A DNA stretch of 19,234 nt. It comes from a virus (taxonomy: Duplodnaviria > Heunggongvirae > Uroviricota > Caudoviricetes). A program made the position numbers and the translations under genes. The notes beneath the pieces were generated by a model. That model was not told where the DNA came from. It was given only the letters and a program-made list of their open reading frames with translations, and ran no database searches. This document shows, one piece after another, positions 2,949 to 19,234 of this stretch. Location of the stretch: the IMG/VR virus record IMGVR_UViG_2563366844_000003, one strand, 5' to 3'. Within the stretch, counting starts at the first letter, position 1. Every line of letters begins with the position of its first letter.

Positions 2949-2960
2949 CGGAGACTGAAA

Positions 2961-3794: not shown

Positions 3795-3969
3795 GCCGAC
3801 AGGAACACCCCAACCTCAAAAACGCTACAAAGATGCCCACGGAGCACTCGTTACTGTCGAAAGCGTGTCTCACAACCGAGTGACGTTTTATCGCGACGGG
3901 TATCAATCGCCATGCGTACAACCGCTGGCACGTTTCATGAAGGAGTTTGCGGAGGTTAACAAATGCTAA
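3787..3969 (+). CDS. Small conserved prophage protein (DUF4222-like, tentative)
   Basis: 60-aa ORF starting at ATG 3787, which overlaps the antirepressor stop (ATGTTTAA). MFKPTGTP...RVTFYRDGY...PCVQPLARFMKEF resembles a small family common in enterobacterial prophages. The ORF track extends it upstream to 3700, inside the preceding gene. Confidence 0.45.
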   Translation: MFKPTGTPQPQKRYKDAHGALVTVESVSHNRVTFYRDGYQSPCVQPLARFMKEFAEVNKC

Positions 3970-5030
3970 CCGCCCAGAAGAAGATATTTTCACTGGCTGG
4001 TATGTCGCCAAAATCCAGCAATATGACAGCAAAGTCTGGCATTAATACAGCAGACACAAGCAAAGTTTATCATTTTCTGGTGGTAGGAGCGGATGCCTTA
4101 ACTATGTCAGAAATTACGGTCGATGGTGTTAGCGTTGAGAAGGTCAGCGGCTGCGCCAGAGAATTTCTGGTCGTAGATGGCTTTCTCTGCTCGCGTAGTG
4201 ACTCCACAAAAACCTTCGTCCACACGCGCGACGTTAACGAAATGAGCGCGATGTATTGTGCATCTGGTGCTTCCAATTCTGAGTTTTCGGAGTCCATAAA
4301 AAAGAGCTTGCCGTTATGCGGCAACACGGTTTATGGTTATAAGGCACCTCATAAAACGGGTGCCGGGATTGGCGTCCTGGTAAATCGAATGGCGACATAT
4401 GACGCGCCGAGCGTCTTTTTTTATGTCGTAGGTCTGACTCACCCATTTTTTGGGCGTTGGTGTATAATCCAGCGCCTTTGTCAATCAATGGTGGCTCAGG
4501 CAGGGGCTTCTTCGGAAGCGCCGGTATCCATTCGAGCCGGTTACGCCAACCCTGTCTGGGCTACCACCAGCGAAATTGGCGTTTCCGGTGGTAGCGTTAC
4601 ATGCTATCGAATGGAGGCTGCCACATGCTGGCTACTACCCCTACCCAAAAACCGCAATTTATCTGGATTATCGCCGCAGTTCGCCGCGATTGCCCGACAA
4701 TTACCGCCAAAATTCATCATATTGCTGCCGAGTCTGAACGCGATGCTCGCCGTTCTCTGGTGCGCGATCACGTCTGCTTTTTTGCTGGTCGTATCCGCAT
4801 GGAGGTGGCACATGATTAAAACCTACGATGTGCATATGGATCCCCTCGAACGCACAAGCCAGATCATCACACTGACAGAAGTGATTAACGACATTCTGGT
4901 GAGCAACTCTCCCTCACGAGACGAAAGACTGAAGGCGTTACTCGCGATATTGGATCTCGCCGTTCGTGACGTTCATTTCCTGCTGGAAGGTGGCGAAATG
5001 CCAGGAAAAACGGGGGCAACCAATGAATAA
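3963..5030 (+). CDS. Uncertain long ORF (355 aa); possibly composite, with a regulatory region and nested small ORFs
   Basis: Strong GGAGG SD 7 nt before ATG 3963 and no in-frame stop to 5030. The 4400-4810 portion contains a terminator-like hairpin plus T-run, a TATAAT box, three open frames and a low-complexity Cys/Trp-rich translation. Confidence 0.3.
4401..4422 (+). terminator. Putative intrinsic terminator (GACGC-gccga-GCGTC followed by T7)
   Basis: 5-bp GC stem, 5-nt loop, seven consecutive T. Lies inside the 3963 ORF, so it is functional only if that ORF is not translated through. Confidence 0.3.
4430..4470 (+). promoter_or_regulatory. Putative promoter with consensus -10 TATAAT (4463-4468) for the operon leading to the primase
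   Basis: Perfect TATAAT hexamer preceded by TG-rich sequence. The -35 is only a weak match (CTGACT region). Sits immediately after the terminator-like hairpin. Confidence 0.3.
4625..4819 (+). CDS. Small ORF (64 aa), first candidate gene of the primase operon
   Basis: GGAGG SD (4613-4617) 7 nt before ATG 4625. The SD-to-ATG 17-mer ATGGAGGCTGCCACATG is nearly duplicated at 4797-4814. Overlaps another frame, so low confidence. Confidence 0.25.
   Translation: MLATTPTQKPQFIWIIAAVRRDCPTITAKIHHIAAESERDARRSLVRDHVCFFAGRIRMEVAHD
4812..5030 (+). CDS. Small ORF (72 aa), C-terminal part of the 3963 frame with its own strong start
   Basis: GGAGG (4801-4805) 6 nt before ATG 4812. Stop overlaps the next start (ATGAATAA). 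Translation is protein-like. Confidence 0.4.
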   Translation: MIKTYDVHMDPLERTSQIITLTEVINDILVSNSPSRDERLKALLAILDLAVRDVHFLLEGGEMPGKTGATNE

Positions 5031-5217
5031 CTCAATTAATGCCCATCGACTTACGTCCGCACTTCAATTAATCGAGCAAGCAGCGGCTGTCCTGGTTGCT
5101 GTCAGTCTTTCGGCTGAAGAAATGGACGCTGTTGATGTCGTGGATGCGATTAAAGCGTGCTCATCTTTGGTTAACGATGCCCGTGCAGAGCTGGTAATTC
5201 TTGGGGGTGAAAAATGA
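5023..5217 (+). CDS. Hypothetical small protein (64 aa)
   Basis: ATG 5023 overlaps the upstream stop; ends in ATGA overlap with the next ORF. Confidence 0.5.
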   Translation: MNNSINAHRLTSALQLIEQAAAVLVAVSLSAEEMDAVDVVDAIKACSSLVNDARAELVILGGEK

Positions 5218-5477
5218 ATATCAACTTAATTTATCGTCATCCGTGTGAGCTGGAAATTGAATCATTGCTGAGCCGTGAAGAGCCATATCCAGACACATTC
5301 ACTCTTGCAGATCGCACGACTGAACGGCTTACCAGAGCGCGCACAGGTCTGGTTCATGTGATGAATGAGATTCTTCCATCGGTGGGAGGGGAACAGGCGA
5401 CAGTAATCACTAGCTGGCTACAAAAAGTTACCTCTCTGATAGATATCAGTTTAATCGATGCGGAGAGTGCGAAATGA
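5214..5477 (+). CDS. Hypothetical small protein (87 aa)
   Basis: Start/stop overlaps with both neighbours (ATGA), consistent with translational coupling. Confidence 0.55.
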   Translation: MNINLIYRHPCELEIESLLSREEPYPDTFTLADRTTERLTRARTGLVHVMNEILPSVGGEQATVITSWLQKVTSLIDISLIDAESAK

Positions 5478-5695
5478 CTAACATCCAGCTCATTGAAGCG
5501 CAATGTCGCATCGAACAGGTTCAGACTGTTTTAGGGTTCTGGCTTGAAGGGGCCAGCCCCAGCAACAGAGACAAGTTAATGATTGGCGCGGTTATGTCAC
5601 TGCTCAATGGCGTACCAGAAGCTATTCAGGAAGCGGACGAATTGTTGGGCAAATATGAGTTACAGAATCATTCAGGCGAGGCGAAACATGAATAA
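5474..5695 (+). CDS. Hypothetical small protein (73 aa)
   Basis: Coupled to neighbours; stop overlaps the start of the next gene (ATGAATAA at 5688-5695). Confidence 0.55.
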   Translation: MTNIQLIEAQCRIEQVQTVLGFWLEGASPSNRDKLMIGAVMSLLNGVPEAIQEADELLGKYELQNHSGEAKHE

Positions 5696-6290
5696 TTTCT
5701 TAACGTTCCATGCAGAAGCAACGCCTGACGGCGTAAACATCATGTACCGCAGCAACGATGGCATGACAGAACGCGTTGAGGCCGTCTCATATATTGATGC
5801 CGTAAATCGTCTGGATGCCGGGGATTATGACGATAAACCAGATGAAGGTATGTCAATACATCTCGCTATTGCCGATGGCGGCAACCAGGGATATTTCGAT
5901 TACACATCACAGCATAACGTCATTATGTGGAGATGGCTGATCGCAACAGTATTCATGCTGGAAATGAGAGAGGAAAACGGCACTGTCAGCATCATTGATG
6001 ATACTGGCAATCCTTCCGAAGTGGCTGTTTATTCCAACGGCATCGTCGCCATGCCGCTGTATCCAGTAGCAGAGCGTCTCGCTATGGCAAACAACATTGA
6101 GGGCGCGATGATAGAACGTTTTGGCATCGAGTCTGGCACAGAACGCGCCATCATTTTCTACAGAGCCATGATGGATGTGGAACAAGGAGCACTGACTCCA
6201 TTTGGTCGTGAAACGCTTGCTGAACTTCACAACAGCTTTATAGCTGAACTGAATGAAAACGGCATGCCAGCGGAACCAGTGACGCACTGA
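5688..6290 (+). CDS. Hypothetical protein (200 aa)
   Basis: Most plausible start is ATG 5688, overlapping the upstream stop; the track's 5583 start lies inside the previous gene. Confidence 0.6.
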   Translation: MNNFLTFHAEATPDGVNIMYRSNDGMTERVEAVSYIDAVNRLDAGDYDDKPDEGMSIHLAIADGGNQGYFDYTSQHNVIMWRWLIATVFMLEMREENGTVSIIDDTGNPSEVAVYSNGIVAMPLYPVAERLAMANNIEGAMIERFGIESGTERAIIFYRAMMDVEQGALTPFGRETLAELHNSFIAELNENGMPAEPVTH

Positions 6291-6300
6291 GGATGGAGCC

Positions 6301-6642
6301 ATGATTACTAAAAATTTCCGACTGAATGCGCTGGCAAATAAGTATGCGTCGGCACTGTATAACCACATTACCTCCACCAGCGACGGGGACTATTTCATGG
6401 TTGATGCGGACGGCGAGGCCGTACGTGTGGAAATCGTCAATGGAGTAAAAGGCGTTCGCAGCCTGATCGATAGCTACACACTGGCAGCCATGAAAGTGTT
6501 CTACCCGCAGTGGGAAACCGTGGGGATCGAGCTTCTTGAGCGTTGCGTCAATAAGGACGGATTGACTGACGTCGGGCGTGAGATATGGCAAAGCATGGTT
6601 AATGACATGGGCGCAACTGTAGCGGGAGGTTCTCATGCGTGA
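6301..6642 (+). CDS. Hypothetical protein (113 aa)
   Basis: GAGG SD before ATG 6301; stop overlaps the next start. Confidence 0.6.
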   Translation: MITKNFRLNALANKYASALYNHITSTSDGDYFMVDADGEAVRVEIVNGVKGVRSLIDSYTLAAMKVFYPQWETVGIELLERCVNKDGLTDVGREIWQSMVNDMGATVAGGSHA

Positions 6643-7006
6643 AAATGCAGAAATGGCGCTTAGCTCCGCAATCGGAGAGCAGGTGGCAAAGATTGCTGGT
6701 GCTGTGTGGATTCATAACCTTCATTCTACTGGTGAAGAGAAAATGGCAATTCAGACGCCAGAGGGACGCACCATTACTACATCTCTGAAGCCGTCAGATG
6801 TTTGTGATCTGATTTGCGCATTCATGTACCCAGCAATGAGGACTGTCCACGGCGATCAGTGGAAACTTGCGACAACCGCTGAATTTGATATGTGGCTAAA
6901 CAATGATGGCATGCTGACTGATTACGGAATAACCAAGTGGCAGATGCTGGTTAGCCATATCGCAAACGCTATAGACCACGTGGGGTACGGTGATGCGAAA
7001 CATTGA
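6635..7006 (+). CDS. Hypothetical protein (123 aa)
   Basis: GGAGG SD before ATG 6635; 3' end overlaps the primase start. Confidence 0.6.
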   Translation: MRENAEMALSSAIGEQVAKIAGAVWIHNLHSTGEEKMAIQTPEGRTITTSLKPSDVCDLICAFMYPAMRTVHGDQWKLATTAEFDMWLNNDGMLTDYGITKWQMLVSHIANAIDHVGYGDAKH

Positions 7007-9749
7007 TCTTATCCGTCAGGTTATCAGTGCGTCTGAAAACAACTGGCCTCATGTGCTGGGCTGCCTGAACATAAATGTCCCTGACTCTCCGCGCCGTCAT
7101 GCTCCCTGCCCTGCATGTGGGGGCAAAGATCGATTCCGGTTCGATGACAACGGGCGCGGTAGCTTCATCTGTAATCAGTGCGGCGCTGGTGATGGGCTGG
7201 ATTTAATTAAACGCGTAAATAACTGCGACACAACAGAGGCGGCGCTTCTTGCCGCTGATGTTCTGGGTATTGATTACCGGACAACGGAAACACCAGAAGC
7301 CACCAGCCAGAAACGGGAACAACTGGAAACCAAGCGCCAGCGACGCGAACAGGAGCGCCTGAAAAGGGCAGAGAAGGACGAACAACAAAGACGGGATACG
7401 TTTTCCCGTCAGTTTGATGACATGCGCAGAAAGGCTGTAAACGGCAAATCTGATTATCTGGTTGCGAAAGGGGTAGGTGATTTTACATTCCCCGTGTTGC
7501 CCGATGGATCTCTGTTGCTGGCGCTGGTGGATAAATCCGGCGCAGTCACAGCAGCACAGACTATTACCTCACATGGTGAAAAAAGACTCCTGACAGGTTC
7601 AGCAAAGCGGGGGGCATATCACGCCATAAACGCACCAGAAACAACACAGAGCATCTTAATCGCAGAAGGGCTGGCAACGGCATTATCTGCCCATTTAATT
7701 CGCCCAGAGGCGCTTACAGTGGCGGCGATTGATGCCGGGAACCTGTTATATGTCGCCCAGGTACTGCGGGATAAATTTCCTTCAGCACAAATCATCATTG
7801 CTGCGGATAACGACCACAGCGAAGGAAGACAAAACACGGGGAGAAGAGCAGCAGAAAAAGCAGCTTTATCTGTTTCTGGATGGGTGGCATTACCCCCGAC
7901 AGATCACAAAGCAGACTGGAATGATTACCACCAAAAACACGGCATTAAATGCGCCACAGAAGCGTTCAATAAGTCAATGTACCAACCACAGGGTAATGGC
8001 GTGAAACAGGAGCCACAGACCATTGAGGGAAGCGATTTTAAGGTTATGGATACCGACCCACTGAAACCAAGAATAGAAAGCCGCGAGGATGGTATTTATT
8101 GGGTATCTCCGAGAGCTGACAGCCAGAGTGGAGAAATCATCAATAACGAAAGCTGGTTATGTTCTCCGTTAAGCGTTATCGGTACTGGCAGAGACGATAA
8201 AGACCAGTATCTCATTCTTCGCTGGCTGTCGTTTGGTTCTGAAACGCCGACAACCGCTGCCATTCCACTGGCTGATATTGGTGAACGTGAAGGATGGCGC
8301 ACACTTAAAGCTGGTGGGGTAACTGTCACGACCAAAAGCAGCCTCAGAGCAATACTGGCAGACTGGCTACAACGCAGTGGCTCTCGTGAATTGTGGCGTG
8401 TTGCTCATGCCACTGGCTGGCAATGCGGAGCGTACATCATGCCTGATGGGGAAATCATCGGAACACCTGAAAATCCTGTGCTGTTCAGCGGGAGAAGCTC
8501 AGCCGCAGCCGGATATACCGTCTCAGGGAGCGCGAAAAGCTGGCGTGATAACGTGGCGCGTCTGGCCTTTGGTAACTATTCAATGATGACCGGGATCGGC
8601 GCAGCACTGGCAGCGCCATTGATTGGGCTGGTGGGCGCTGACGGGTTCGGCATTCATTTCTATGAGCAGTCGAGCGCAGGTAAGACCACCACGGCAAACG
8701 TGGCGAGCAGCTTATACGGCAACCCTGATTTACTGCGGCTGACGTGGTACGGAACCGCGCTGGGGCTGGCAAATGAAGCTGCCGCCCACAATGACGGACT
8801 AATGCCGCTTGATGAAGTTGGTCAGGGCGCTGATCCTGTCAGTGTTTCACAGTCTGCCTATGCGTTATTTAACGGTGTAGGGAAACTGCAAGGCGCTAAA
8901 GATGGTGGAAACCGGGATCTAAAACGCTGGCGTACAGTGGCAATCAGCACCGGAGAAATGGATTTAGAAACATTTATCGCTACTTCCGGGCGAAAAACCA
9001 AAGCCGGGCAACTGGTGCGACTGCTGAATATTCCGTTGAGTAAAGCAGTACGCTTTCACGATTACCAGAACGGAAAACAGCACGCAGACGCACTGAAAGA
9101 CGCTTACCAGCATCACCACGGCGCAGCCGGGCGTGAGTGGATTAAATGGCTGGCAGACCACCAGCAACAGGCAATTAAAACTGTTCGTGACCGCGAAAGC
9201 AGATGGAGAAGTCTGATCCCATCCGATTATGGTGAGCAGGTTCACCGTGTAGCCGCGCGATTTGCCATTCTGGAGGCCGCATTGCTGTTAGGCGAGGTTG
9301 TAACAGGCTGGGATGCTCAGACATGCCGTGATGCGATACAGCACAGCTATAACGCATGGTTGCGCGAGTTCGGCACAGGTAACAAAGAACATCAGCAGAT
9401 TATTGAACAAACGGAGGCATTTCTTAATGCCTATGGGCTTAGCCGTTTTGCACCATTTCCATACAGCCCGGCAGATTTGCCCATCAAAGATTTAGCCGGA
9501 TACCGTCAGCGTGGAGAACATGACGAAAGCCCAATGATTTTCTACACATTCCCGGCCACATTTGAAAAGGAGATCGCATGTGGTTTCAACGCAAAACAGT
9601 TTGCTGAAGTGTTGAAAAAAGCCGGGATGCTAACCCCACCAAACAGCGGTCGTGGATACCAAAGAAAATCACCACGTATTCAGGGACGACAAATAAACGT
9701 TTATGTACTCAATTACCAGCCAGGAGATTACAACTCATCTGAAGAATGA
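6993..9749 (+). CDS. Replicative primase/helicase, P4-alpha-like (zinc-binding N-terminus, TOPRIM, P-loop NTPase)
   Basis: Zn-ribbon CPACGG...FICNQCG near the N-terminus. TOPRIM-like ILIAEGLATA and IIIAADNDHSEG (acidic E and DxD). P-loop-like SSAGKTTT. Start is probably ATG 6993; the track begins at the in-frame GTG 6990. Confidence 0.9.
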   Translation: MRNIDLIRQVISASENNWPHVLGCLNINVPDSPRRHAPCPACGGKDRFRFDDNGRGSFICNQCGAGDGLDLIKRVNNCDTTEAALLAADVLGIDYRTTETPEATSQKREQLETKRQRREQERLKRAEKDEQQRRDTFSRQFDDMRRKAVNGKSDYLVAKGVGDFTFPVLPDGSLLLALVDKSGAVTAAQTITSHGEKRLLTGSAKRGAYHAINAPETTQSILIAEGLATALSAHLIRPEALTVAAIDAGNLLYVAQVLRDKFPSAQIIIAADNDHSEGRQNTGRRAAEKAALSVSGWVALPPTDHKADWNDYHQKHGIKCATEAFNKSMYQPQGNGVKQEPQTIEGSDFKVMDTDPLKPRIESREDGIYWVSPRADSQSGEIINNESWLCSPLSVIGTGRDDKDQYLILRWLSFGSETPTTAAIPLADIGEREGWRTLKAGGVTVTTKSSLRAILADWLQRSGSRELWRVAHATGWQCGAYIMPDGEIIGTPENPVLFSGRSSAAAGYTVSGSAKSWRDNVARLAFGNYSMMTGIGAALAAPLIGLVGADGFGIHFYEQSSAGKTTTANVASSLYGNPDLLRLTWYGTALGLANEAAAHNDGLMPLDEVGQGADPVSVSQSAYALFNGVGKLQGAKDGGNRDLKRWRTVAISTGEMDLETFIATSGRKTKAGQLVRLLNIPLSKAVRFHDYQNGKQHADALKDAYQHHHGAAGREWIKWLADHQQQAIKTVRDRESRWRSLIPSDYGEQVHRVAARFAILEAALLLGEVVTGWDAQTCRDAIQHSYNAWLREFGTGNKEHQQIIEQTEAFLNAYGLSRFAPFPYSPADLPIKDLAGYRQRGEHDESPMIFYTFPATFEKEIACGFNAKQFAEVLKKAGMLTPPNSGRGYQRKSPRIQGRQINVYVLNYQPGDYNSSEE

Positions 9750-9772
9750 GCTTCTTCATGTGCGTAGAAAAG

Positions 9773-9887
9773 GTGTTGGTTCAGTTGGTTCAGTTGGTTC
9801 AATTTATAAATGGTATTGTTTTATAAGGATTTTATTCTTTTTATTGAACCAACACTGAACCAACAACACGGTATTTTGAACCAACAC
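9773..9887. repeat. Iteron block 1: three tandem GTTGGTTCA (9775-9801), an AT-rich spacer, then three inverted copies TGAACCAAC (9845-9853, 9856-9864, 9877-9885); putative replication origin
   Basis: Exact 9-mers counted directly. Classic iteron plus AT-rich architecture, 26 bp downstream of the primase stop. Confidence 0.7.
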
Positions 9888-9935
9888 AATGTGACTGAAT
9901 TGATGCGCACAACACCTGGCTGGCATCAGAGAGTG

Positions 9936-10011
9936 TTTTACGAGACTTTCGTAAAATCCTGTGTACAAGGGCGTGACGTTTTTGAAAGTGAGCACTACGA
10001 AATTTTCGTAG
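9936..10011. promoter_or_regulatory. Two related palindromes sharing a TACGA/TCGTA half-site: TTTTACGA-n5-TCGTAAAA (9936-9956) and CTACGAAA-n1-TTTCGTAG (9995-10011)
   Basis: Perfect 8-bp inverted arms in both. Located between the iterons and the terminator; candidate operator sites or RNA hairpins. Confidence 0.3.
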
Positions 10012-10205
10012 TTCAGAAAACAGCCCTTGAGAAGTTGTTATGCCTGTTCAGCAAACCATCCGCATAGCTGATCGCGAATCAAATTACCAATGGAGCCAGA
10101 AGCAAGGGCAGAACTGAAAAGCGCCTGCCGTGAAGAGTAATGCGACACCATAAATATAGTTTTTAGAGTCCATAAAAAACCTGTCAAAACCTGACACACA
10201 GAACG

Positions 10206-10239
10206 ATGCCACCAGCTACTGAGCGGTGGCATTTTTTTT
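10206..10239 (+). terminator. Rho-independent terminator closing the primase/origin transcription unit
   Basis: ATGCCACC...GGTGGCAT stem (8 bp, extendable with inner pairs) followed by eight consecutive T. Confidence 0.65.
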
Positions 10240-10249
10240 GTGCTATATG

Positions 10250-10320
10250 TTTCATATTTTGCAATTACGATGATGAATGTTGCGATTTGTGAAACTATAA
10301 TAACTGTTGTTTTATACAGT
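10250..10320 (+). promoter_or_regulatory. Putative promoter region for the cargo operon (TATAAT at 10296-10301)
   Basis: AT-rich tract with a consensus -10 hexamer and TTGCAA/TTGCGA -35-like elements at non-ideal spacing, between the terminator and the SD of the small ORF. Confidence 0.3.
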
Positions 10321-10334
10321 TCTAAGGGGGCGTT

Positions 10335-10496
10335 ATGGCTATTTCAGTAAAGCCGGTATTGATAAGTGAGAAGCAAATGGAAGCGATAAAGAAAATTCAG
10401 GAAGAGCAGCGTAAAAAATCAGGAATTGGAGTAGCGCCAACTCTGCATGAAATTGCACGAGGGTTAATAGATAAGGCGCTGGCAGGCTGTATGTGA
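10335..10496 (+). CDS. Small ORF (53 aa) absent from the ORF track; possible ribbon-helix-helix-like regulator
   Basis: Strong SD AAGGGGG 5-6 nt before ATG 10335. Translation MAISVKPVLISEKQMEAIKKIQEEQRKKSGIGVAPTLHEIARGLIDKALAGCM has a beta-strand then two-helix pattern compatible with an RHH fold (by eye only). Confidence 0.4.
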   Translation: MAISVKPVLISEKQMEAIKKIQEEQRKKSGIGVAPTLHEIARGLIDKALAGCM

Positions 10497-10512
10497 AAAT
10501 GGATGGCATCGC

Positions 10513-10974
10513 ATGGAACTAAAATTTATTGATAACCCTGTGCGATTACAGGCCTTTCTTAACGAGCCTGGCAATACCGAAAATATTGTTGAGCCGGGGC
10601 ACACGTACTACATCAAGCCTGATGCGGTATATCTCGGTATCTACGAAGGATTGGTGCTGGCTGGCGTTCATGAAGTGCGTAACTTCTGGCATAACATTGT
10701 TGAATGCCATGCGGTGTACGACCCCGGATTCCGTGGTGAATATGCACTGCAAGGGCATCGATTATTCTGCAAATGGCTTCTCAAAAACTCACCATTCCTT
10801 AACAGCATTACCATGGTTCCTGACACCACCAAATACGGACGGGCAATTATCCGTTTGCTTGGCGCTACCCGTGTTGGTCACCTTGATGATGCTTATATCA
10901 GATGTGGTAAACCCGTCGGCGTAACGCTTTATCAGTTAACTCGGCAACAATATAAGGAATTCAGCGAATGTTAA
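10513..10974 (+). CDS. Putative virion-associated protein, first gene of the ejection-protein-like operon (position analogous to P22 gp14)
   Basis: 153-aa intact ORF whose stop overlaps the next start. Assignment rests on operon position and size, not a recognised motif. Confidence 0.65.
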   Translation: MELKFIDNPVRLQAFLNEPGNTENIVEPGHTYYIKPDAVYLGIYEGLVLAGVHEVRNFWHNIVECHAVYDPGFRGEYALQGHRLFCKWLLKNSPFLNSITMVPDTTKYGRAIIRLLGATRVGHLDDAYIRCGKPVGVTLYQLTRQQYKEFSEC

Positions 10975-11645
10975 TTACCCATATAGCTCATAAATATCTC
11001 AATCGTGCCGTATACGAAAAAGGCGGTGATGGTGGTGCCTCTAAAGCTCAGGCGAAGGCCCAGCAGCAGGCAATTGATTTGCAGCGCGAGCAGTGGAATA
11101 CGGTGATGAATAATCTCAAGCCGTATGCAGAAGTCGGATTGCCTGCTTTACAACAACTACAAGGACTGATGACTCTGGAAGGGCAGAATAAAGCCGCGAA
11201 TGATTTCTTTGGTTCTGGTTTATATAAAACACAGGCAGATCAGGCCCGTTATCAGAACCTTGTCTCAGCAGAAGCTACCGGGGGGCTTGGCTCAACAGCT
11301 ACCAGTAACCAGTTATCTTCCATTGCGCCCATGCTTTATAACAATTGGCTCAGTGGGCAAATGCAAAATTATGGAAACCTGCTAAATGTCGGGATGAATG
11401 CGGCATCAGGGCAGGCAACAGCAGGGCAAAACTACGCCAATAATACCGGACAACTCTTGCAGGGGCTTGGCGCTATTCGTGCAGGTCAGGCGCAGCAGCC
11501 ATCCAGTCTTGCGCGTGGTATTGGTGGGGCGGCATCAGGCGCTTTAGCGGGTGCGCAACTTGGTTCCGTTGTTCCGGGTATAGGTAATGTCGCCGGGGCT
11601 ATTGGTGGTGGGCTTATTGGTCTTGTTGGGGGGCTTGGATTCTAA
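10968..11645 (+). CDS. Putative ejection/DNA-transfer protein (P22 gp7-like architecture; Gly-rich hydrophobic C-terminus)
   Basis: 225 aa. Gln/Ala-rich N-terminal half and a glycine-zipper-like tail GIGGAASGALAGAQLGSVVPGIGNVAGAIGGGLIGLVGGLGF. Stop overlaps the next start (TAATG). Confidence 0.7.
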   Translation: MLITHIAHKYLNRAVYEKGGDGGASKAQAKAQQQAIDLQREQWNTVMNNLKPYAEVGLPALQQLQGLMTLEGQNKAANDFFGSGLYKTQADQARYQNLVSAEATGGLGSTATSNQLSSIAPMLYNNWLSGQMQNYGNLLNVGMNAASGQATAGQNYANNTGQLLQGLGAIRAGQAQQPSSLARGIGGAASGALAGAQLGSVVPGIGNVAGAIGGGLIGLVGGLGF

Positions 11646-12964
11646 TGGCGACATGGCAACTTGGCGGGCTGCCTAGCATGGCACCGCAAAATGATAATGC
11701 TCCTCGTTCTTCCGTTCCTCAGCCTGTGCAGTATCAGCAGCAGCCAAACGTAGGTTTAATGGCGCTACAGGGGCTAAGAGGCGTTGCTGAGATTAATCAG
11801 CAGGCGCAAATTTCCCAGCAGCTAAAAGAATATCAGGCACGGTTGGGTAGTGCGGTAGCTAATAATGATCGTGTTGGAGTGCAGAAGTTAATGGCCCAGT
11901 ATCCCCAGTTTATGGCTGATTCTCAAAAACAGATGGGATTCATTGATGCTGAGCAAAATCGACAGACCGCTGACGCTGCCATGAATCTGCGTCTTGCGTC
12001 ACAAACTGGAGATCCACTGACCATGCAGAAGGCCATTCAGCAGGCAAATCCAGTATTACAGCGATTTGGTCTTCCTGCTGAAGAGGTTTATCAGTCTTGG
12101 CAGAATGACCCACAGGAATTCAACAGAATCACTGACCTCATCCACCTCCATGCTGATCCAAATAGTTACTTTAGTGTTCAAGAGAAGCAGCAAGGGCAGA
12201 GCATTGCACAGCAGAACGCAGATACATCTGCATATAATGCTCAGGTTAATGCGGAACAGGGTAATCGGCGTCTCGATATGGAGCAGTTCAAAGTCCTATC
12301 CGATAACCAACTACGCACGAGAGAAATGGTTCTGAAAGCACGACTTGGACGTGCTCAAAATGACATCGAGAGAGACAAGCTCAATGCTGAACTGAGCAAA
12401 GTACAGCAGGCGAAAGTGGAGAAGATGAACGATAAAATTAATACTGTTGCAGGTAACATCGACTCCTTGAACTCTGCGCTTGAAGTGGGTCATGAACTGG
12501 CGGGAATTGTAGGGAAACATCCTTCGGCCGTTACCCGCTCGCAGAACTATAACCCCCTGACGCTGGGGTTTGGATTCCTTCCTGATGTAGCAGAAGACAC
12601 ACGAAGCCTACGCGCCAAAGCTGATGAATACAACCTAAAGGTTATTCTGCCTAGCCTCAAAGGGACTTTTGGCTCTAACCCAACCGAAGGGGAAAGGGCT
12701 GCCCTTATGCAATCTCAAAATGGCATTAAGTCAGCAACCAGCAATGAGGCATTTTTGCGAGAGTTGAATAAAGCGCAGGACGTAATTATTCGAATGCAGA
12801 AACGACAGATTGCCGGGCTCGGTATTCCTGTAACCAAATCAAAGGACGAAGAAACTGATACCAAAATGCTGTTGCAGGATCCTTCACTGATTAAGGATTA
12901 TGTGACCGCACATGGCTATCTGCCGGAAAGTTACTATCAGGCAAAACTTAAGGGATGGCAATGA
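11645..12964 (+). CDS. Putative ejection protein (P22 gp20-like; Gln-rich coiled-coil)
   Basis: 439 aa, Gln-rich and predicted alpha-helical. Coupled start/stop with both neighbours. Confidence 0.7.
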   Translation: MATWQLGGLPSMAPQNDNAPRSSVPQPVQYQQQPNVGLMALQGLRGVAEINQQAQISQQLKEYQARLGSAVANNDRVGVQKLMAQYPQFMADSQKQMGFIDAEQNRQTADAAMNLRLASQTGDPLTMQKAIQQANPVLQRFGLPAEEVYQSWQNDPQEFNRITDLIHLHADPNSYFSVQEKQQGQSIAQQNADTSAYNAQVNAEQGNRRLDMEQFKVLSDNQLRTREMVLKARLGRAQNDIERDKLNAELSKVQQAKVEKMNDKINTVAGNIDSLNSALEVGHELAGIVGKHPSAVTRSQNYNPLTLGFGFLPDVAEDTRSLRAKADEYNLKVILPSLKGTFGSNPTEGERAALMQSQNGIKSATSNEAFLRELNKAQDVIIRMQKRQIAGLGIPVTKSKDEETDTKMLLQDPSLIKDYVTAHGYLPESYYQAKLKGWQ

Positions 12965-15681
12965 TGGCACAACTGACAGAAAAACAGAAAGCCTATTCCC
13001 GTCATCTCGATGAAAAATATGGTTTCCCATCAGGGACGATGGAAACATTAGTTGGCAATGAATCTAGTGGTAACGGAAGTGCCGAGTCACCGAAAGGAGC
13101 TAGAGGATTTGCTCAACTGATGCCCTCAGTAATGAGTGATGCTGGTTATCGTGGAACTGATCCGCGCTCACTGCCATTTGAAAAGCAAATGGATATCGCA
13201 GCAAACCATCTCAATAAAGGAATGAAGCGATTTGGTGATATTGGTATGGCATTGGCTGGGTATAATTCTGGCTATGCTCGTATTAATGCCGTCAGAAACG
13301 GTAAATCTACACTGCCAGATGAAACGGCTAATTACGTAAGTAAATTTGCAGATGCCGGAATAATCCCTGATGACAGTGAAATCTTGCAGTTTGCACAAAC
13401 CAGTCAACATCGCAATCTTCAGCAGCCTGACTACTCAGAGCTTGATAAAGAAATCTCTCAGGTGGGAGATATTTCTGCATGGGAAGCAAAACGTCAGCAA
13501 TTTAAGAACATAGAAGCAGGACTACCAACAGCCAGTTCATGGGAGCAGAAAAGAGCTCAGTTTCTCGCCGATGAAAATGCCGGGGAACCGCAGCAGCAAG
13601 TAGCCAAGTCTAACCTTAATCCTGAGATGGAATATCTTTCGCCAGGACTGAAAGCTGCGCCAGAGCAGATGGCCAGAGGGATTGCTAATATACCGTTTGA
13701 TGTAATGGACGCAGGCGTGGGGGTAGTCAATGCGGCGCAATCAGCCGGAGCATGGGCAGCTCAGAAGCTTGGTGTGGGTGATGGCACATACACGCCCATA
13801 TCACCTGTCTTTCGCCCAGTAGACCAACCTACAGATCCATACGCGCAGGCTGGTGAGCAGCTAGCACCTTACCTTATTACAGGATTAGGTGCAGGAAAGG
13901 CAGCTACCGCAGCTTCTTCCGTTGCCAACGCTCCACGTGCTGAACGTGCGGCCACAAAGGTGGCTAGTATGTTGGCAGAAAACCTGCCAGGTACATTGGT
14001 GAACGCCCAAAAGAACGGGCAGATCAGCCCAGAAGACCTAGCAAAAGAGACAGGTATTGGCCTAGCAGGATCGCTAGGAGCACGCGCTTTAATAAAGAGC
14101 GGACAGACAGCCAGTGACGTAATGCGAGATGTATTGCGGAGTAATACAAATCAATCAGGCCATGTGTTAGGGGCAGCAAATACTCTGGAAACCGCCAATG
14201 ATGTATCGAAAGCAGCGCGTTCTGCCGTAGGCCGAGAGCATATCGCATCGCAGGCATCAAACGTCAGAGATGATGTCGCTAAGGCGGCGAAAATCACTGG
14301 TATTAATATCAACACCCTGACGCCCGGAATGCGCTCAGGTAGTCGTGGAATTGCCCAAGCAGAAGGTGTTCTGGCATCAACTCCTGGGAATGTTCAGGAT
14401 GCTCACCTTACGGCCTTCAATGAAATATCCTCAAAGTTGAATAAGCAGTTGTCTGATTTCGGTGCTGAGTCTGGAAGCGCATCAGAAAAAAGCGCAGCAA
14501 TTAAAGAGCGCATCATCGCGAGCCTCAGTGATATGAAAACAGCAGAGAATATGGCATGGGCAGAACTGCGAAGCACGATGCCACGCGAAAGGATGAAAAT
14601 GAGTAATGGGATGGCTGTCGTCCAAGCAGAAAAAGCAGCCAATGTTCCACTCAGCCCGGAGATGAAACAGTTTCAGGCTGCCAACAACCAAGGTGGCGGC
14701 ATAACCTTCGACGGGATGAAGGCATGGCGTGCTAAGTTTGCTGATGCTGAACAAGCAAACACCCGGGCAGGTAAGGCCAATGCCGCCCGGATTGCCGGAG
14801 AAATGCGCAGAGCTATCACTGATGACATGCGCATCATGGCTGAAAAAGGAAACTTCCTCACAGAATGGCAGAAAGCTAACGATCTCTCTAAAAGTTACAT
14901 TATCGCCAAACAAAATGCCGAATCTGTTTTTGGTCGAGATCTCGCATCAGACGCTATGGTAAGAAAAGGTGCCGATACGCTTAAGGCATCCGCAAACACT
15001 GGAACGGGAGCTTTTCACCGCCTTATCTCCGCGCTGCCGGAAGCAGAACGCCAACCAGCAATAGCATCTATTCTTCAGCATGCTGTGGCGCAGGGAGAGA
15101 AGGGAGGAATCGGTGAAGAGTCTGGTATCCAGTATTTTGCCAAGCTCATGACCCAGCAGAATGTAAACGCCATCAGTCGTCATGCGCCAGATCTCGGTAG
15201 AATGATGAAAGAGTTCGGTGTACTCGCTAAAGCCAGCACCAGACCGCAGCGATACGTAGAGCGCACGGGAAGAACAACTGAGGCTCTCAAAACGCTCGAT
15301 TCAGGCCTTCCAAAGATCGTCGGTGTGATCATGAACGGAGTTCAACAGTCAGGTGCGATCGCTGGAGGCTTTGGCGGTGGTGTAATTGGTTCGATTAGTG
15401 GTTTGGTTGCTGGTGGCGCACTGAGAAATACTGTGGCTAAGATTGGGGCGACAAGAAGTGGTCGATATGCGATAGAGAAAGCCGTTCAGGAAGCTACAAA
15501 AGCAGTGCGCGCAGGGGCATCACCAGCAGCGATCGCCGCAGCAGAGAAACGATTTTCGACCAATAAAATTGCCATGAAAGCAATTCGTGATGCCGTTGGG
15601 GCTGAAGAATTCGTGAAACTGACAAGGGCCGGGATTGTAGCTACCCTCAGTGGCATGAAAGATGTTAGCGAATGGGAATAG
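12955..15681 (+). CDS. Large internal virion/ejection-type protein with N-terminal lytic transglycosylase (SLT) domain
   Basis: 908 aa. SLT motifs GNESSGNGSAESPKGARGFAQLMP (putative catalytic Glu at nt 13060-13062) and ALAGYNSGYARINAV. True start is probably ATG 12961 or 12964, which have better SD spacing from AAGGGA. Confidence 0.85.
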   Translation: MAMMAQLTEKQKAYSRHLDEKYGFPSGTMETLVGNESSGNGSAESPKGARGFAQLMPSVMSDAGYRGTDPRSLPFEKQMDIAANHLNKGMKRFGDIGMALAGYNSGYARINAVRNGKSTLPDETANYVSKFADAGIIPDDSEILQFAQTSQHRNLQQPDYSELDKEISQVGDISAWEAKRQQFKNIEAGLPTASSWEQKRAQFLADENAGEPQQQVAKSNLNPEMEYLSPGLKAAPEQMARGIANIPFDVMDAGVGVVNAAQSAGAWAAQKLGVGDGTYTPISPVFRPVDQPTDPYAQAGEQLAPYLITGLGAGKAATAASSVANAPRAERAATKVASMLAENLPGTLVNAQKNGQISPEDLAKETGIGLAGSLGARALIKSGQTASDVMRDVLRSNTNQSGHVLGAANTLETANDVSKAARSAVGREHIASQASNVRDDVAKAAKITGININTLTPGMRSGSRGIAQAEGVLASTPGNVQDAHLTAFNEISSKLNKQLSDFGAESGSASEKSAAIKERIIASLSDMKTAENMAWAELRSTMPRERMKMSNGMAVVQAEKAANVPLSPEMKQFQAANNQGGGITFDGMKAWRAKFADAEQANTRAGKANAARIAGEMRRAITDDMRIMAEKGNFLTEWQKANDLSKSYIIAKQNAESVFGRDLASDAMVRKGADTLKASANTGTGAFHRLISALPEAERQPAIASILQHAVAQGEKGGIGEESGIQYFAKLMTQQNVNAISRHAPDLGRMMKEFGVLAKASTRPQRYVERTGRTTEALKTLDSGLPKIVGVIMNGVQQSGAIAGGFGGGVIGSISGLVAGGALRNTVAKIGATRSGRYAIEKAVQEATKAVRAGASPAAIAAAEKRFSTNKIAMKAIRDAVGAEEFVKLTRAGIVATLSGMKDVSEWE

Positions 15682-15831
15682 ACGCTCTAACTAACAAAAC
15701 CATAATAGCCAAGGACGGCATACTGATATTGAGCCAACTATAAAAATTCCATATCACATTACGAGCCTGTGGCTTACATTCGCTTACAGTGATGATAATT
15801 TATAACCACGCAATTCTTAGGTGAGATTATC

Positions 15832-16530
15832 ATGATTAAAAATCTTCTTTTAATATTATCCCTGTCATTATTGGCTGGATGCGTACAAAAACCGTTAGTA
15901 ACGGTCAATGCTTTATCCTCCGGGCAATCTGTCGGTAAGAAGTTCTTGATCATCCCCGCAAGCCAAGAACTTTGGAACACCAAACAGATTGAATACACTC
16001 AAATAGCTACGGTAGTAGCCGCCAGTTTATCAAGCCAAGGATATACACAAGTTAAAGATGAAAAATTGGCTGACCAGGTAATTCTCTTGAACTTTTTGAG
16101 AAGCGGGGCCATTTCAAATACTCGTAATGTAACCATCCCAATATACGGGCAAACTGGTGTGAGCTCAGCAACAACGTACGGAAACTCGAACACCACGTTC
16201 AATAGTTATGGTGGTGGCTACGGTACGGCTAATACCACTGGAACGGCAACAACAGTTTATACGCCTACTTATGGAATTACTGGCGCGTATAACACAACTG
16301 TGACGGACACGTTCTACGGCGCAGGGGTGATACTCCAGTCGTTTGATGCCAAGGCTTATCTCAATAATAGGCAGATTAATATGTTATGGAAAGTTGGTAG
16401 CTCAGTCGTCTCGCAACAGTCTGATGGAATTGCTGATTACAAAGGGTTGGCGAGAATAGCCGCTAGCTATGCCGGGAAAAATACAGAAGGTGATATAACT
16501 TTTAATGTTGACCCTAAAGCACCAAATTAA
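15832..16530 (+). CDS. Lipoprotein with Thr/Gly/Tyr-rich low-complexity core
   Basis: Signal peptide plus lipobox LLAGC. Central T/G/Y/N-rich tract (about aa 110-160). AGGTGAG SD. AT-richer than the upstream operon. Confidence 0.8.
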   Translation: MIKNLLLILSLSLLAGCVQKPLVTVNALSSGQSVGKKFLIIPASQELWNTKQIEYTQIATVVAASLSSQGYTQVKDEKLADQVILLNFLRSGAISNTRNVTIPIYGQTGVSSATTYGNSNTTFNSYGGGYGTANTTGTATTVYTPTYGITGAYNTTVTDTFYGAGVILQSFDAKAYLNNRQINMLWKVGSSVVSQQSDGIADYKGLARIAASYAGKNTEGDITFNVDPKAPN

Positions 16531-16537
16531 CTAATAA

Positions 16538-16553
16538 GCCCGGTACGCCGGGC
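16538..16553 (+). terminator. GC-rich hairpin GCCCGG-tacg-CCGGGC after the lipoprotein gene (weak terminator candidate)
   Basis: 6-bp GC stem with a 4-nt loop, 8 bp after the stop, but a poor U-tract (ATTCAT). Confidence 0.3.
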
Positions 16554-16743
16554 ATTCATGCCCCTATTATTCATGAATCGCTTTTTCTGGAAGGTATGCG
16601 ACAAACGTTAAGTGACATTGCCTACACATTCGGGGCGGGATTTCAAATCCGCTCCCAGTTGATGGGGCCGTTACAGTACGCGCATATCCGCTTTATGTGA
16701 AACAGGAAGATTTTTCTGATATCACTGCCACAGCAAAACACCA

Positions 16744-16956
16744 ATGTCGAGACAAGTACGCGCGCGAGGGTTATCAGTTGCAAAAAGTTTTGCAACTGCG
16801 TCCGACCAGTACGCACACAATGGAGGGGAGTACCATAAAACTGTTCTCTACATAAGACAGAGTGATGGTGATGTGTTGATTATCGGCTTATATGCGCACA
16901 GGACGCGCTATGACGATGTTTTATGCGGGTACACCAATCACATATATCTGGTGTGA
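16744..16956 (+). pseudogene. Possible remnant of a RelE/ParE-superfamily toxin gene (C-terminal motif only)
   Basis: C-terminal HKTVLYIRQSDGDVLIIGLYAHRTRYDD loosely matches the RelE/ParE C-terminal pattern, but the N-terminal 35 aa are not toxin-like and overlap repeat sequence. Weak. Confidence 0.2.
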
Positions 16957-17055
16957 TAAATCGCGTTACATGACCTCTCATGTTGTGCTGGTGGTTATCA
17001 CGACGTTCTGAATCTGGCCTTTGCCTGGTATTTTGCGACAAGTACGCGCGCGTAG
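16752..17055. repeat. Direct repeats GACAAGTACGCGCGCG (16752-16767 and 17040-17055) flanking a 24-bp perfect palindrome CAGTTGCAAAA-AG-TTTTGCAACTG (16775-16798)
   Basis: Exact 16-mer occurs twice 288 bp apart. A third TACGCGCGCG occurs at 19012-19021. Confidence 0.6.
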
Positions 17056-17600
17056 CATCGAAATAATCGGATGGCGTATGCTGCTGGTAATATGAAGACC
17101 GATAGCATTAACCGAAAGGAGAAAGACTTCTCGATAACGGCAAGATCGCGGCAAGGGGGCTGAATTGCGAGGCGAGATTAAGCAACTGTCTTGAACGTAA
17201 AAATCATGGAGCAACATGATGGTACGATTCATTCCATTCTTCGTTCTTTCTGAGCATTGCGTTCAGGCTTAGTCAAAATTAGTGTTGCGAGCGGACCTAT
17301 TAGTAATTGTTAGTGCGATGCGCCTGTTATGGATTGTTATGGTTGTGGCAGGCCTGATTAATATCCAGTATGACCACCAGCTATGAGAAGCCACCTCAGT
17401 GGTTCGCAGTTGCAGGTTTGCACTCAGGTTCGCAGGGTTTTGGCTACTTTCACGTGCGAACCTGCAGAATTGCAAAGGACAACTAAGTCCTCTGGCCAAC
17501 TCCCGGTTTATGAGCGACACAGTCCGCCTGGCGCATCGTTTTCGTCGAGTGCGCCCATCAGCTTGTCCATGGACTATCCACCACTCGATATTAAAGCTAA

Positions 17601-17786
17601 TCATTGGTTGCCAGCCCGCGAATCAAGTTTATTCTGGATCCAAGCTTCAACCTCCTCAAGCGACCATCTAGCTGATCTACCAATTTTAACTGGCTGTGGA
17701 AACGTGCCCGTCTTAACCCATGAGTAGATTGCCGTTTTCTTGAAGCCCGTTCTGAGCATGACTTCGCTTAATTTGATAAGGCGCAT
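17601..17786 (-). CDS. alpA: Second AlpA-family transcriptional regulator, opposite strand
   Basis: 61 aa. MRLIKLSEVMLRTGFKKTAIYSWVKTGTFPQPVKIGRSARWSLEEVEAWI is a textbook AlpA sequence. GGAG SD on the minus strand upstream. Confidence 0.85.
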   Translation of the reverse strand: MRLIKLSEVMLRTGFKKTAIYSWVKTGTFPQPVKIGRSARWSLEEVEAWIQNKLDSRAGNQ

Positions 17787-17835
17787 AGAGGCTCCTCTGC
17801 TTTAGATTAAGCATAGTGACAATCTGGCTTTGGGC

Positions 17836-17870
17836 GGTATCCAAAAGCGAGGTATCCATGTTGGTATCCA
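17836..17870. repeat. Three direct GGTATCCA repeats (17836-17843, 17851-17858, 17863-17870) in the divergent region upstream of minus-strand alpA
   Basis: Exact 8-mers spaced 15 and 12 bp apart, start to start. Confidence 0.5.
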
Positions 17871-17984
17871 CCAAAACGCTGTTTACCAAAAAAGTTACCA
17901 CCGGAACAGGACATTTTGAGCTGTAACTTAACACATAGCATATGGAGTTCACGTATAGACTTCACGCACAACGGCTCCGGCCAG

Positions 17985-18013
17985 TGAAGAATCACCCTGG
18001 CTGGCAATATAAT
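17985..18013 (+). promoter_or_regulatory. Putative promoter (-10 TATAAT at 18008-18013) for the small + strand ORF
   Basis: Consensus -10 hexamer with a weak -35 (TGAAGA) at 17-bp spacing. Confidence 0.3.
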
Positions 18014-18038
18014 GCCGATCACCATCAGAGGGGAATCC

Positions 18039-18215
18039 ATGACACCACGAGAAATCGAGCTGCTGACCATTGCCAAGCTGGAGCATGACGGCCACCAGCT
18101 CAGCCCGGCAGAACTGCGGGAATTAAGGCGCCAGCTGGCAGAGGGCCCTGTAATAGCCAGGCGGTACCGCGAAATGATGACCAGCGCCGCTCCGTGCGCG
18201 GTGAGCAGCACCTAA
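18039..18215 (+). CDS. Small hypothetical protein (58 aa)
   Basis: GAGGGG SD 5 nt before ATG 18039. The track's start at 18012 overlaps the -10 box and lacks an SD. Confidence 0.45.
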   Translation: MTPREIELLTIAKLEHDGHQLSPAELRELRRQLAEGPVIARRYREMMTSAAPCAVSST

Positions 18216-18276
18216 CCAGCACTAGACAAGCCCTGTGCTGGTGGATGTCCCTCATAATTAGCGGTTTTTAAACGGC

Positions 18277-18401
18277 GTGTTGGTTCACGGCCTCTTTTTG
18301 TTGGTTCAAAAATGGGGGGTGTTGGTTCACTTTTTGCGAATAATCCTTTTAAAAACAATACTCTTTACAAATTGAACCAACTGAACCAACTGAACCAACA
18401 C
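18277..18401. repeat. Iteron block 2: three spaced GTTGGTTCA (18279-18287, 18300-18308, 18321-18329), an AT-rich spacer, then three tandem TGAACCAAC (18373-18399); inverted copy of block 1
   Basis: Same 9-mer as block 1, with the tandem and spaced arrays swapped. The reverse complement of the spacer aligns with the block-1 spacer (shared ATTTRTAAA...GTATTGTTTT...AGGATT...ATTC). Confidence 0.7.
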
Positions 18402-18435
18402 CTTTTTGCTTATCTATATAGTCTGAGAGGCAGAA

Positions 18436-18723
18436 ATGATGAGGGACAGGAAAGCTGAAGAGCTGGAGTCAAAAGGGCTATGCCGGAGAGCTGCCGCACG
18501 ATGGGCAGAAGTCATGACGCTGGCAGATGGCGATAAAGAACGTGAACATGCAGCAAACAGACGCTCTGAATGTATCCGTAGGGCGGCACGCCCACCAGCA
18601 ACTACAGACAGATTCGGAGATTTAAGACAGGCAGTTAAGCGAACTCATTCGGCTCTTGGTATGGATGAGGAAGCGAGAGGGTACTTCAGGCGTTATCGCG
18701 ATAAAGATTGCCAGAGACAGTAA
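18436..18723 (+). CDS. PerC-family transcriptional regulator (tentative)
   Basis: 95 aa. N-terminus KAEELESKGLCRRAAARWAEVM resembles the PerC motif (AEKLEAKGLWRRAA.RW.EV) as I recall it. GAGAGG SD. Confidence 0.6.
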   Translation: MMRDRKAEELESKGLCRRAAARWAEVMTLADGDKEREHAANRRSECIRRAARPPATTDRFGDLRQAVKRTHSALGMDEEARGYFRRYRDKDCQRQ

Positions 18724-19106
18724 TGCTCTCTCTGTTTTGGCAAATTACCCCTCACTTTGAAGGGATCGGAGCTATAAAAATGGTGTTATCCGGCTTCCTG
18801 CATTGCAGGTTTTCGAAAAAATCAATGGGTTAGGTCATCGTGCAAATTTGCACTCTGCCAGCCAACGCAATTTCTCGTTGGCGAAAATATCAGGTATTTA
18901 CTGAACGAACGGTCTACCAGTCTATTCAGTTACCAGTTGCACATGGCTGTTTCATGTGAGAACGGAGGTTTTTTCGGACATCACTATTGGGTACAGCAAT
19001 TTCACGAGCAATACGCGCGCGCAGGACAACAAGCCTGAACATGATTACACACCTCGATCGTGAGGGATGTAGACAATGGCTTCTGACCAAAGCACCCAAA
19101 AAAACC

Positions 19107-19128
19107 GTGTACATAAGGGTGTACATAA
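19107..19128. repeat. Direct repeat GTGTACATAA x2 (19107-19116, 19119-19128) with palindromic TGTACA cores
   Basis: Two exact 10-mers separated by GG. Candidate regulator binding site near the window end. Confidence 0.35.
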
Positions 19129-19234
19129 TCAAAAACCGCATTATAAAGAAACCAGCCACAATGAGGCATTAAAGCCAACACTCTACAAACAGATTCAATC
19201 GAGTAAGCGGCATCGCATTGTAGGCCATTGTTAA

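Follow-up and report, generated by a model that had tools for sequence, protein, structure and literature searches.

The lipoprotein gene and its expression signals

The 19,234-nucleotide stretch of viral DNA analyzed here (IMG/VR record IMGVR_UViG_2563366844_000003; "the window" below) carries, at positions 15832 to 16530 of the plus strand, an open reading frame (ORF) for a 232-residue lipoprotein, located downstream of a P22-type ejection operon in an element that closely resembles EcCIMP1 of Escherichia coli MP1. An original prediction, made from the sequence by itself, had described the product as a moron-like lipoprotein and a candidate determinant of superinfection exclusion. The gene, its parts, and the signals that flank it are as follows.

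15773-15801, plus strand: promoter-like footprint, comprising a -35 hexamer CTTACA (15773-15778), a 17-nt spacer, TG at 15793-15794, and a -10 hexamer TAATTT (15796-15801)
15819-15825, plus strand: Shine-Dalgarno sequence AGGTGAG, 6 nt before the ATG, read from the sequence
15832-16530, plus strand: lipoprotein ORF, ATG start, 232 amino acids
15832-15882, plus strand: lipoprotein signal peptide, residues 1-16, with lipobox LLAG-C, from the translation
15883-16128, plus strand: N-terminal half of the α/β core, residues 18-99 (strand-strand-helix-helix-strand)
16129-16311, plus strand: long β-hairpin, residues 100-160, the Thr/Gly/Tyr tract
16138-16182, plus strand: hairpin base strand P103-G117, conserved
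16183-16248, plus strand: hairpin tip, residues 118-139, variable
16249-16284, plus strand: hairpin base strand T140-G151, conserved
16312-16530, plus strand: C-terminal half of the α/β core, residues 161-232, and stop codon, from the model and protein alignment A1
16538-16563, no strand assigned: GC-rich stem-loops just 3' of the stop codon, GCCCGG-TACG-CCGGGC at 16538-16553 overlapping a second stem at 16550-16563, from the terminator scan

The ORF is a real gene, with homologues in many genera whose identity to it falls from 90% to under 30%; its RefSeq annotation is WP_000594596.1. The N-terminus of the product reads MIKNLLLILSLSLLAG-C, with the lipobox at L13-C17, Cys17 as the residue predicted to be lipidated and to begin the mature protein, and Val18 at position +2. 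The Cys in the column of Cys17 is almost invariant in alignment A1, and a lipobox-like motif was found in 157 of 184 family proteins. In E. coli, an Asp at +2 retains a lipoprotein in the inner membrane; otherwise, the Lol pathway sorts it to the outer membrane. The lipoprotein conforms to the lipobox pattern [LVI][ASTVI][GAS]C and has no Asp at +2; because Val occupies this position, we predict that it is Lol-sorted to the outer membrane. The tract rich in Thr, Gly, and Tyr, TTYGNSNTTFNSYGGGYGTANTTGTATTVYTPTYGITGAYNTTVTD, extends over residues 114-159, and 18 Thr, 10 Gly, and 7 Tyr were counted among the 58 residues from 103 to 160.

Several elements of the original prediction were borne out at this level. 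The gene does have its own Shine-Dalgarno sequence and an LLAGC lipobox, and it is AT-richer than the operon upstream, with a GC content of 0.426, compared with 0.496 for the upstream gp16 gene and 0.373 for the 150-nt spacer. The genes said to form an ejection operon upstream were identified as P22-type gp14, gp7, gp20, and gp16.

Upstream sequences from E. coli, Enterobacteriaceae, Pluralibacter, and two Serratia P22-like prophages were compared in a second alignment, A2. The invariant columns (CTT.CAT and ATG.T.ATTT) coincide with the -35 hexamer and the TG-extended -10 hexamer, and the spacer varies; we infer that the footprint acts as the promoter of the lipoprotein gene. It was not flagged by a scan for consensus σ70 promoters upstream of the gene, because its hexamers are weak. 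A terminator scan found none between gp16 and the lipoprotein gene. The stem-loops after the stop codon are terminator-like, but the T tract on the plus strand is weak and the stem is only 6 bp; a search for inverted repeats of at least 12 nt found nothing. Since the gene has its own footprint and no terminator separates it from gp16, it is probably transcribed both independently, as a moron would be, and by read-through of the upstream operon. Two database entries for 89-90% identical homologues (P0002 and P0003, 272 residues; L002-L004:10001-10120) begin 40 codons before the conserved Met and signal peptide; the extension covers the promoter-like region, and the start is probably miscalled.

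Family membership and predicted structure

Direct scans of the lipoprotein against Pfam, NCBIfam, PHROGs, and PADLOC gave nothing above threshold. The sub-threshold Pfam signals were to DUF4136 (PF13590; 14.2 bits, E value 0.062, cut-off 32.8) and TraT (PF05818; 12.9 bits, cut-off 31), and a profile search of Protein Data Bank (PDB) sequences gave no match at an E value of 10 or below. A word-indexed search identified 37 homologues, the distant ones annotated as PF13590, with identities of 90% in Kluyvera, Pluralibacter, and other Enterobacteriaceae, 62-63% in Serratia, and down to about 30% elsewhere; 16 of 31 aligned members matched DUF4136 at an E value of 0.01 or below, the best at 1e-17. 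An exhaustive profile search, in which clusters were represented at 50% identity, extended the family to 3,845 representative clusters at an E value of 1e-3 or below, 660 of them at 1e-30 or below. The clusters are mostly 210-260 residues long, with full-length matches, and the matched genomes include Proteobacteria, Verrucomicrobiota, Planctomycetota, Nitrospirae, Bacteroidota, Chlamydiae, and spirochaetes. These profile matches place the lipoprotein, as a divergent member, in a large DUF4136-related family. No functional information was found in the literature on DUF4136. The element EcCIMP1 and the Pfam superfamily were already known; what is new here is a candidate function for a family with no assigned role.

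Conservation within the family is concentrated in the hairpin. Among 166 family members, conservation is 100% at G106, G109, G148, and G151, 98% at T108 and T141, 97% at P103 and P145, 96% at Y147, and 92% at Q107. The base strands of the hairpin, with the motifs P-x-x-GQTGVSS..T.G and TT.Y.PTYGITG, are the most conserved part of the protein, 56-68% identical in distant homologues versus 13-16% for the α/β core. Residues 118-139, which form the tip, show the divergence seen in the rest of the protein, and in the enterobacterial clade they include a 9-residue insertion that only 10-16% of the family shares. The Thr/Gly/Tyr tract that the original prediction called unusual is therefore present, but it is neither the oddity of a single protein nor low-complexity filler: it is a conserved family signature and a structural element.

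An AlphaFold2 model, built with a 31-sequence alignment, had a predicted local distance difference test (pLDDT) score of 85 and consists of an α/β core from which one very long β-hairpin extends. The hairpin strands run from 82 to 124 and from 132 to 172, with the tip at SYGGGYG, and the two conserved motifs lie opposite each other at the hairpin base. Helices are formed by the signal peptide and by residues 45-67, 173-179, and 200-212. Comparison of the model with known structures gave the following fold relatives, each with its score.

PelC, 10.7
TraT, 9.5
DUF4136 member BT2437, 9.0
CsgG, 8.6
LptE, 7.6

A search with Foldseek gave a concordant result for the core and matched the hairpin to the stems of aerolysin, ε-toxin, lysenin, and anthrax protective antigen pores. 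An assignment as an aerolysin-like pore-forming toxin was considered and rejected, because the match is to hairpin geometry alone, with template modeling scores of 0.1-0.16. Among the viral structures in BFVD no real relative was found, only one LptE-like entry. The model has the same fold as the solved DUF4136 member BT2437 (PDB 4f54), although in the direct scan the lipoprotein, at 14.2 bits, falls short of the DUF4136 cut-off; its subfamily is set apart by the long GQTG...PTYGITG hairpin, and DUF4136 itself has no known function. The homology and structure search proposed in the original prediction thus yielded a DUF4136-related family and a core of the PelC/TraT/LptE/CsgG type, whereas the direct scans remained below threshold throughout.

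Several of these relatives assemble into rings: PelC has been deposited as a dodecamer ring and TraT as a decamer ring, and CsgG also forms rings. The β-barrel of the TraT decamer is built from long β-hairpins, each projecting from an LptE-like core (PMC11733297, PMC12658005). By analogy, it is reasonable to infer that the lipoprotein oligomerizes through its hairpin. The hairpin base has one modestly hydrophobic face (I102, I104, and V110 on one strand; Y143, Y147, and I149 on the other), and the remainder is Thr, Ser, and Gly; a clean transmembrane amphipathic pattern was sought in the hairpin, and only this sparse Tyr/Ile/Val face was found.

The likeness to TraT, the surface exclusion and complement resistance protein of F-like plasmids (PDB 9fsm, 9fs5, 9e2v), is confined to the LptE-like core and the long β-hairpin. 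An hhalign comparison gave 60% probability over 76 N-terminal columns only, in part those of the signal peptide, and the lipoprotein model has no equivalent of the α3/α4 transmembrane hairpin that forms the helical barrel of TraT. Membership of the TraT family was rejected on these grounds, the match being below threshold and limited to the N terminus, and transmembrane helices being absent. The two would also differ in what they act on, conjugation for TraT and phage for the proposed function of the lipoprotein. These same observations bear on the idea that the gene serves host fitness by lysogenic conversion, acting at the surface in the manner of TraT, Bor, or Iss, either by conferring complement resistance or surface exclusion in conjugation or by altering adhesion or the envelope barrier. 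The score of 12.9 bits fails the TraT gathering threshold of 31, and the model lacks the TraT transmembrane α-helical hairpin; in addition, relatives are carried by environmental bacteria, which are never exposed to complement, and the positions of relatives in the sieA slot and in the P2 hotspot, described below, indicate selection related to phages. We regard a host-fitness role as unlikely.

The satellite element and the genomic positions of relatives

EcCIMP1 is a phage-inducible chromosomal island (PICI) of E. coli MP1, and experiments have shown that the P22-like phage vB_EcoP_Kapi1 induces and transduces it (PMC11773190). Across positions 2507-18516, the window matches EcCIMP1 of MP1 at 98.3% identity, and its lipoprotein matches MP1 WP_000594596.1 at 100%. 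The integrase end (positions 1-2506) and the distal end (18517-19234) differ from EcCIMP1; the window is therefore an EcCIMP1-like variant with its integration module swapped. Of 5,426 complete E. coli genomes, 76 contain the segment from 15700 to 16650, in every case in the chromosome; the copy of the element in strain NC101 sits at tRNA-Thr, flanked by proA and the vat island. Matches to Pfam and PHROGs define the genes upstream of the lipoprotein as follows.

10513-15681, plus strand: P22-type ejection module
10513-10974, plus strand: gp14/DUF2824
10968-11645, plus strand: gp7 (P22_gp7)
11645-12964, plus strand: gp20 (Inj_translocase)
12955-15681, plus strand: gp16-type protein with an SLT domain

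All related satellites, like the Serratia P22-like prophages, have the ejection module followed by the lipoprotein gene, and gp14-gp7-gp20-gp16 with the lipoprotein occurs in satellites with two different primase types. The lipoprotein gene of the satellite comes after gp16, and a tailspike gene is absent. Positions 10335-15681 of the window hold a complete P22-type ejection set, including a conserved 53-residue ORF, and other virion genes are absent from the satellite; the EcCIMP1 paper labels the ejection genes merely as possible packaging genes (PMC11773190). The specificity of SieA-type exclusion maps to gp16 and gp20 (PMC10883804), and the satellite's own ejection proteins could alter or escape such exclusion.

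Relatives of the lipoprotein gene occupy a wide range of cargo positions. In two complete P22-like Serratia prophages (L007, L071), the gene is flanked by gp16 and arc/tailspike and fills the interval from gene 16 to gene 9 (tailspike) where sieA is located in P22-like prophages (PMC10883804). In Serratia nevei (L009:1807-13758), a 39% identical homologue comes immediately after five T7-like internal virion proteins (phrog_308, 418, 992, 1145, and 684) and precedes the tailspike, holin, and lysozyme genes, and related IMG/VR contigs have the same order; the position between ejection proteins and tailspike thus recurs with a nonhomologous ejection apparatus. Elsewhere, gpK and gpJ flank the gene in a λ-like tail module of Rouxiella, and in a P2-like prophage of Photobacterium sp. 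Hal280 (L052:4409-13522), a 30% identical homologue has the GPA replication gene on one side and the portal and terminase genes on the other. The GPA-portal interval is the main defense hotspot of P2-like phages (PMC13586616). In several proteobacterial elements, the gene adjoins P4-type integrases or AlpA, and its neighbors in various islands are a reverse transcriptase with KilA-N, a type II restriction enzyme, or Rap1a with BrnT. The cargo sites span at least five unrelated kinds of mobile element.

Two of these sites deserve description in their own right. In Vibrio fluvialis (L011:8536-10708), the homologue lies 185 bp 3' of a 426-residue reverse transcriptase (RVT_1) on the same strand, on an island that also has an integrase, KilA-N, RNase H, and a resolvase. 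In Kosakonia pseudosacchari (L027:8191-10693), a 63% identical homologue stands alone, 370 bp after tRNA-Thr(CGT) and downstream of proBA; this is the EcCIMP1 integration site, no phage or satellite genes lie alongside the homologue, and it may be a remnant or a mini-island.

Relatives were found on 12 IMG/VR viral contigs. A tblastn search of 50,697 deposited phage genomes gave no match, and the helper phage Kapi1 also has no homologue; its gp16-tailspike slot (L077:13681-14223) holds two small signal-peptide ORFs, Kapi1_059 and Kapi1_060. That the lipoprotein is a moron, an accessory cargo gene, is well supported by these comparisons, because it has its own conserved promoter-like footprint, a stem-loop after its stop codon, and a lower GC content than its surroundings, is absent from Kapi1 and the deposited phage genomes, and is carried at varied cargo sites. 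The moron-like character stated in the original prediction, with its low GC content, conserved promoter-like footprint, carriage in unrelated elements, and absence from Kapi1, is in this respect upheld.

The linkage to ejection genes raises the question of whether the lipoprotein instead helps late in the life cycle, expressed by read-through of the ejection operon during lytic growth, either by keeping progeny particles from spending their DNA on debris and cells already lysing, a role proposed for Llp of T5, or by aiding outer-membrane events at release. The missing terminator between gp16 and the gene would suit such a role, as would the tight linkage of the gene, in satellites as well as in P22-like and T7-like contexts, to genes for ejection or internal virion proteins and the position of the holin and lysozyme genes in the Serratia nevei prophage, about 3 kb downstream of the gene and on the far side of the tailspike gene. 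The gene has its own conserved promoter-like footprint, however, and is also found alone with no phage genes nearby; most P22-like phages, Kapi1 among them, lack it, so the lytic cycle can proceed without it. A late helper function seems to us improbable.

Comparison of the ORFs within 6 kb of the gene at 64 loci, by all-against-all BLAST, revealed no conserved partner gene; one small "neighbor" that recurred among these loci proved to be an antisense ORF within the lipoprotein gene itself. The absence of a conserved neighbor argues against a dedicated export or assembly partner. It is also the point on which the lipoprotein departs from PelC, CsgG, and LptE, which use the dedicated partners PelB, CsgE/F, and LptD, respectively, whereas the lipoprotein gene has no conserved neighbor and is borne on mobile elements. 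These findings have to be set against the view that the product is a general envelope lipoprotein, such as a polysaccharide or lipopolysaccharide (LPS) scaffold or a small outer-membrane channel, that hitchhikes on mobile elements and has nothing to do with phages. The huge size of the family across many diderm phyla is in keeping with a general envelope role, as are the fold relatives PelC (polysaccharide export), LptE (LPS assembly), and CsgG (curli secretion) and at least one distant relative located between secA and addB. A conserved partner gene or operon, however, would be expected for export or assembly, and none was found; most annotated contexts examined are mobile elements or variable, defense-like regions; and the patchy occurrence in E. 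coli (76 of the 5,426 complete genomes) indicates that the gene is dispensable. We judge the hitchhiking of a general envelope protein to be quite unlikely.

Weighing a role in superinfection exclusion

In Kapi1 lysogens, EcCIMP1 adds superinfection immunity against Kapi1, a phenotype of the whole element (PMC11773190). PADLOC and DefenseFinder detected no known defense system in EcCIMP1, and the word "lipoprotein" does not appear in the paper, which assigns no gene to the immunity (PMC11773190). We propose that the product of the gene at 15832-16530 is an accessory lipoprotein of the outer membrane that forms a ring and blocks phage entry, and that it is the prime candidate for the immunity conferred by EcCIMP1; we hold this proposal tentatively, giving it slightly less than an even chance. 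In such a mechanism, the lipoprotein would be delivered to the outer membrane by the Lol pathway and would oligomerize into a ring, like PelC, TraT, and CsgG. The conserved hairpin bases would pair between subunits to give a β-barrel or β-sheet, with the variable tip facing outward, and the resulting envelope structure would hinder the entry of incoming phages at the outer membrane or in the periplasm. Exclusion of this kind would account for the EcCIMP1-dependent immunity of Kapi1 lysogens.

An exclusion function is plausible by analogy with systems in related positions. In its favor are the occupation of the sieA slot in Serratia prophages and of the GPA-portal defense hotspot in a P2-like prophage. 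The lipoprotein gene and sieA of P22 share the slot between gene 16 and the tailspike gene, and both are accessory genes expressed from the prophage. They differ in that SieA is a polytopic inner-membrane protein with the motif FxRYPxEAxxFNK that blocks the crossing of DNA through the inner membrane (PMC10883804), whereas the lipoprotein has a single lipoprotein signal peptide, is predicted to be Lol-sorted, is unrelated in sequence, and lacks the SieA motif. Some other phages also encode outer-membrane lipoproteins that prevent reinfection at the envelope, namely, T5 with Llp and φ80, N15, and HK022 with Cor (PMC9586334). Llp and Cor are small FhuA binders, whereas the lipoprotein has 232 residues and another fold, and no homology to them was found. 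Its architecture is not matched by any known exclusion protein.

Several observations weigh against the proposed role. EcCIMP1 alone gives nonlysogens no protection from Kapi1, and full immunity takes both elements (PMC11773190). A constitutive, self-sufficient blocker of Kapi1 is therefore unlikely; if the lipoprotein is responsible, it must need a Kapi1 factor, depend on the helper for its expression, or act only in addition to Kapi1's own barriers. No homology was found to SieA, Llp, Cor, or PHROGs, or to any PADLOC model (no match at an E value of 1 or below). Carriage in cargo slots is guilt by association. The hairpin is rich in Thr, Ser, and Gly and has only a sparse Tyr/Ile/Val face, which makes its insertion into a membrane uncertain. 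Finally, some distant relatives are in ordinary chromosomal surroundings, such as the one between secA and addB in a Limisphaerales genome; the family is thus not exclusively mobile, and its ancestral function may be unrelated to phages.

A more specific version of envelope exclusion would make the lipoprotein the representative of a hitherto unrecognized anti-phage class, borne by phages and satellites, in which the invariant GQTG/PTYGITG hairpins of a ring form a barrel at the outer membrane that obstructs the assembly of the trans-envelope ejection channel of incoming podoviruses or the outer-membrane proteins on which that channel draws. We consider this class fairly unlikely, although if it exists, it would explain both the EcCIMP1 immunity and the repeated position of the gene after ejection or internal virion genes. 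The broader proposal, exclusion by a ring-forming outer-membrane lipoprotein, provides a named and easily testable candidate gene for the published, unexplained immunity of EcCIMP1. It also gives a first functional hypothesis and a structural signature for a family of 3,845 clusters that recurs in cargo and defense slots, both in P22-like, T7-like, λ-like, and P2-like prophages and in satellites of the P4/PICI type. Should a block of entry prove true, it would represent a new architecture for envelope exclusion, related in fold to TraT, and would join the solutions of phages and plasmids to one problem.

Other features of the window lie apart from the lipoprotein gene. Three RNAs scored above their Rfam gathering thresholds, namely, an int-alpA RNA (1269-1335), an isrK Hfq-binding RNA (4344-4421), and a C4 antisense RNA (4484-4571). 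The isrK and C4 RNAs are located inside a 355-residue ORF at 3963-5030, which is annotated as an "ash family protein" in NC101 and is just a partial pseudogene in MP1; because of the RNAs inside it and its pseudogene status in MP1, part of this ORF may be noncoding. The region of about 1 kb on the 3' side of the lipoprotein gene, at 16531-17600, has no annotated coding sequence in NC101 or MP1, and in satellites of other Enterobacteriaceae the matching region carries an ORF of 189-209 residues.
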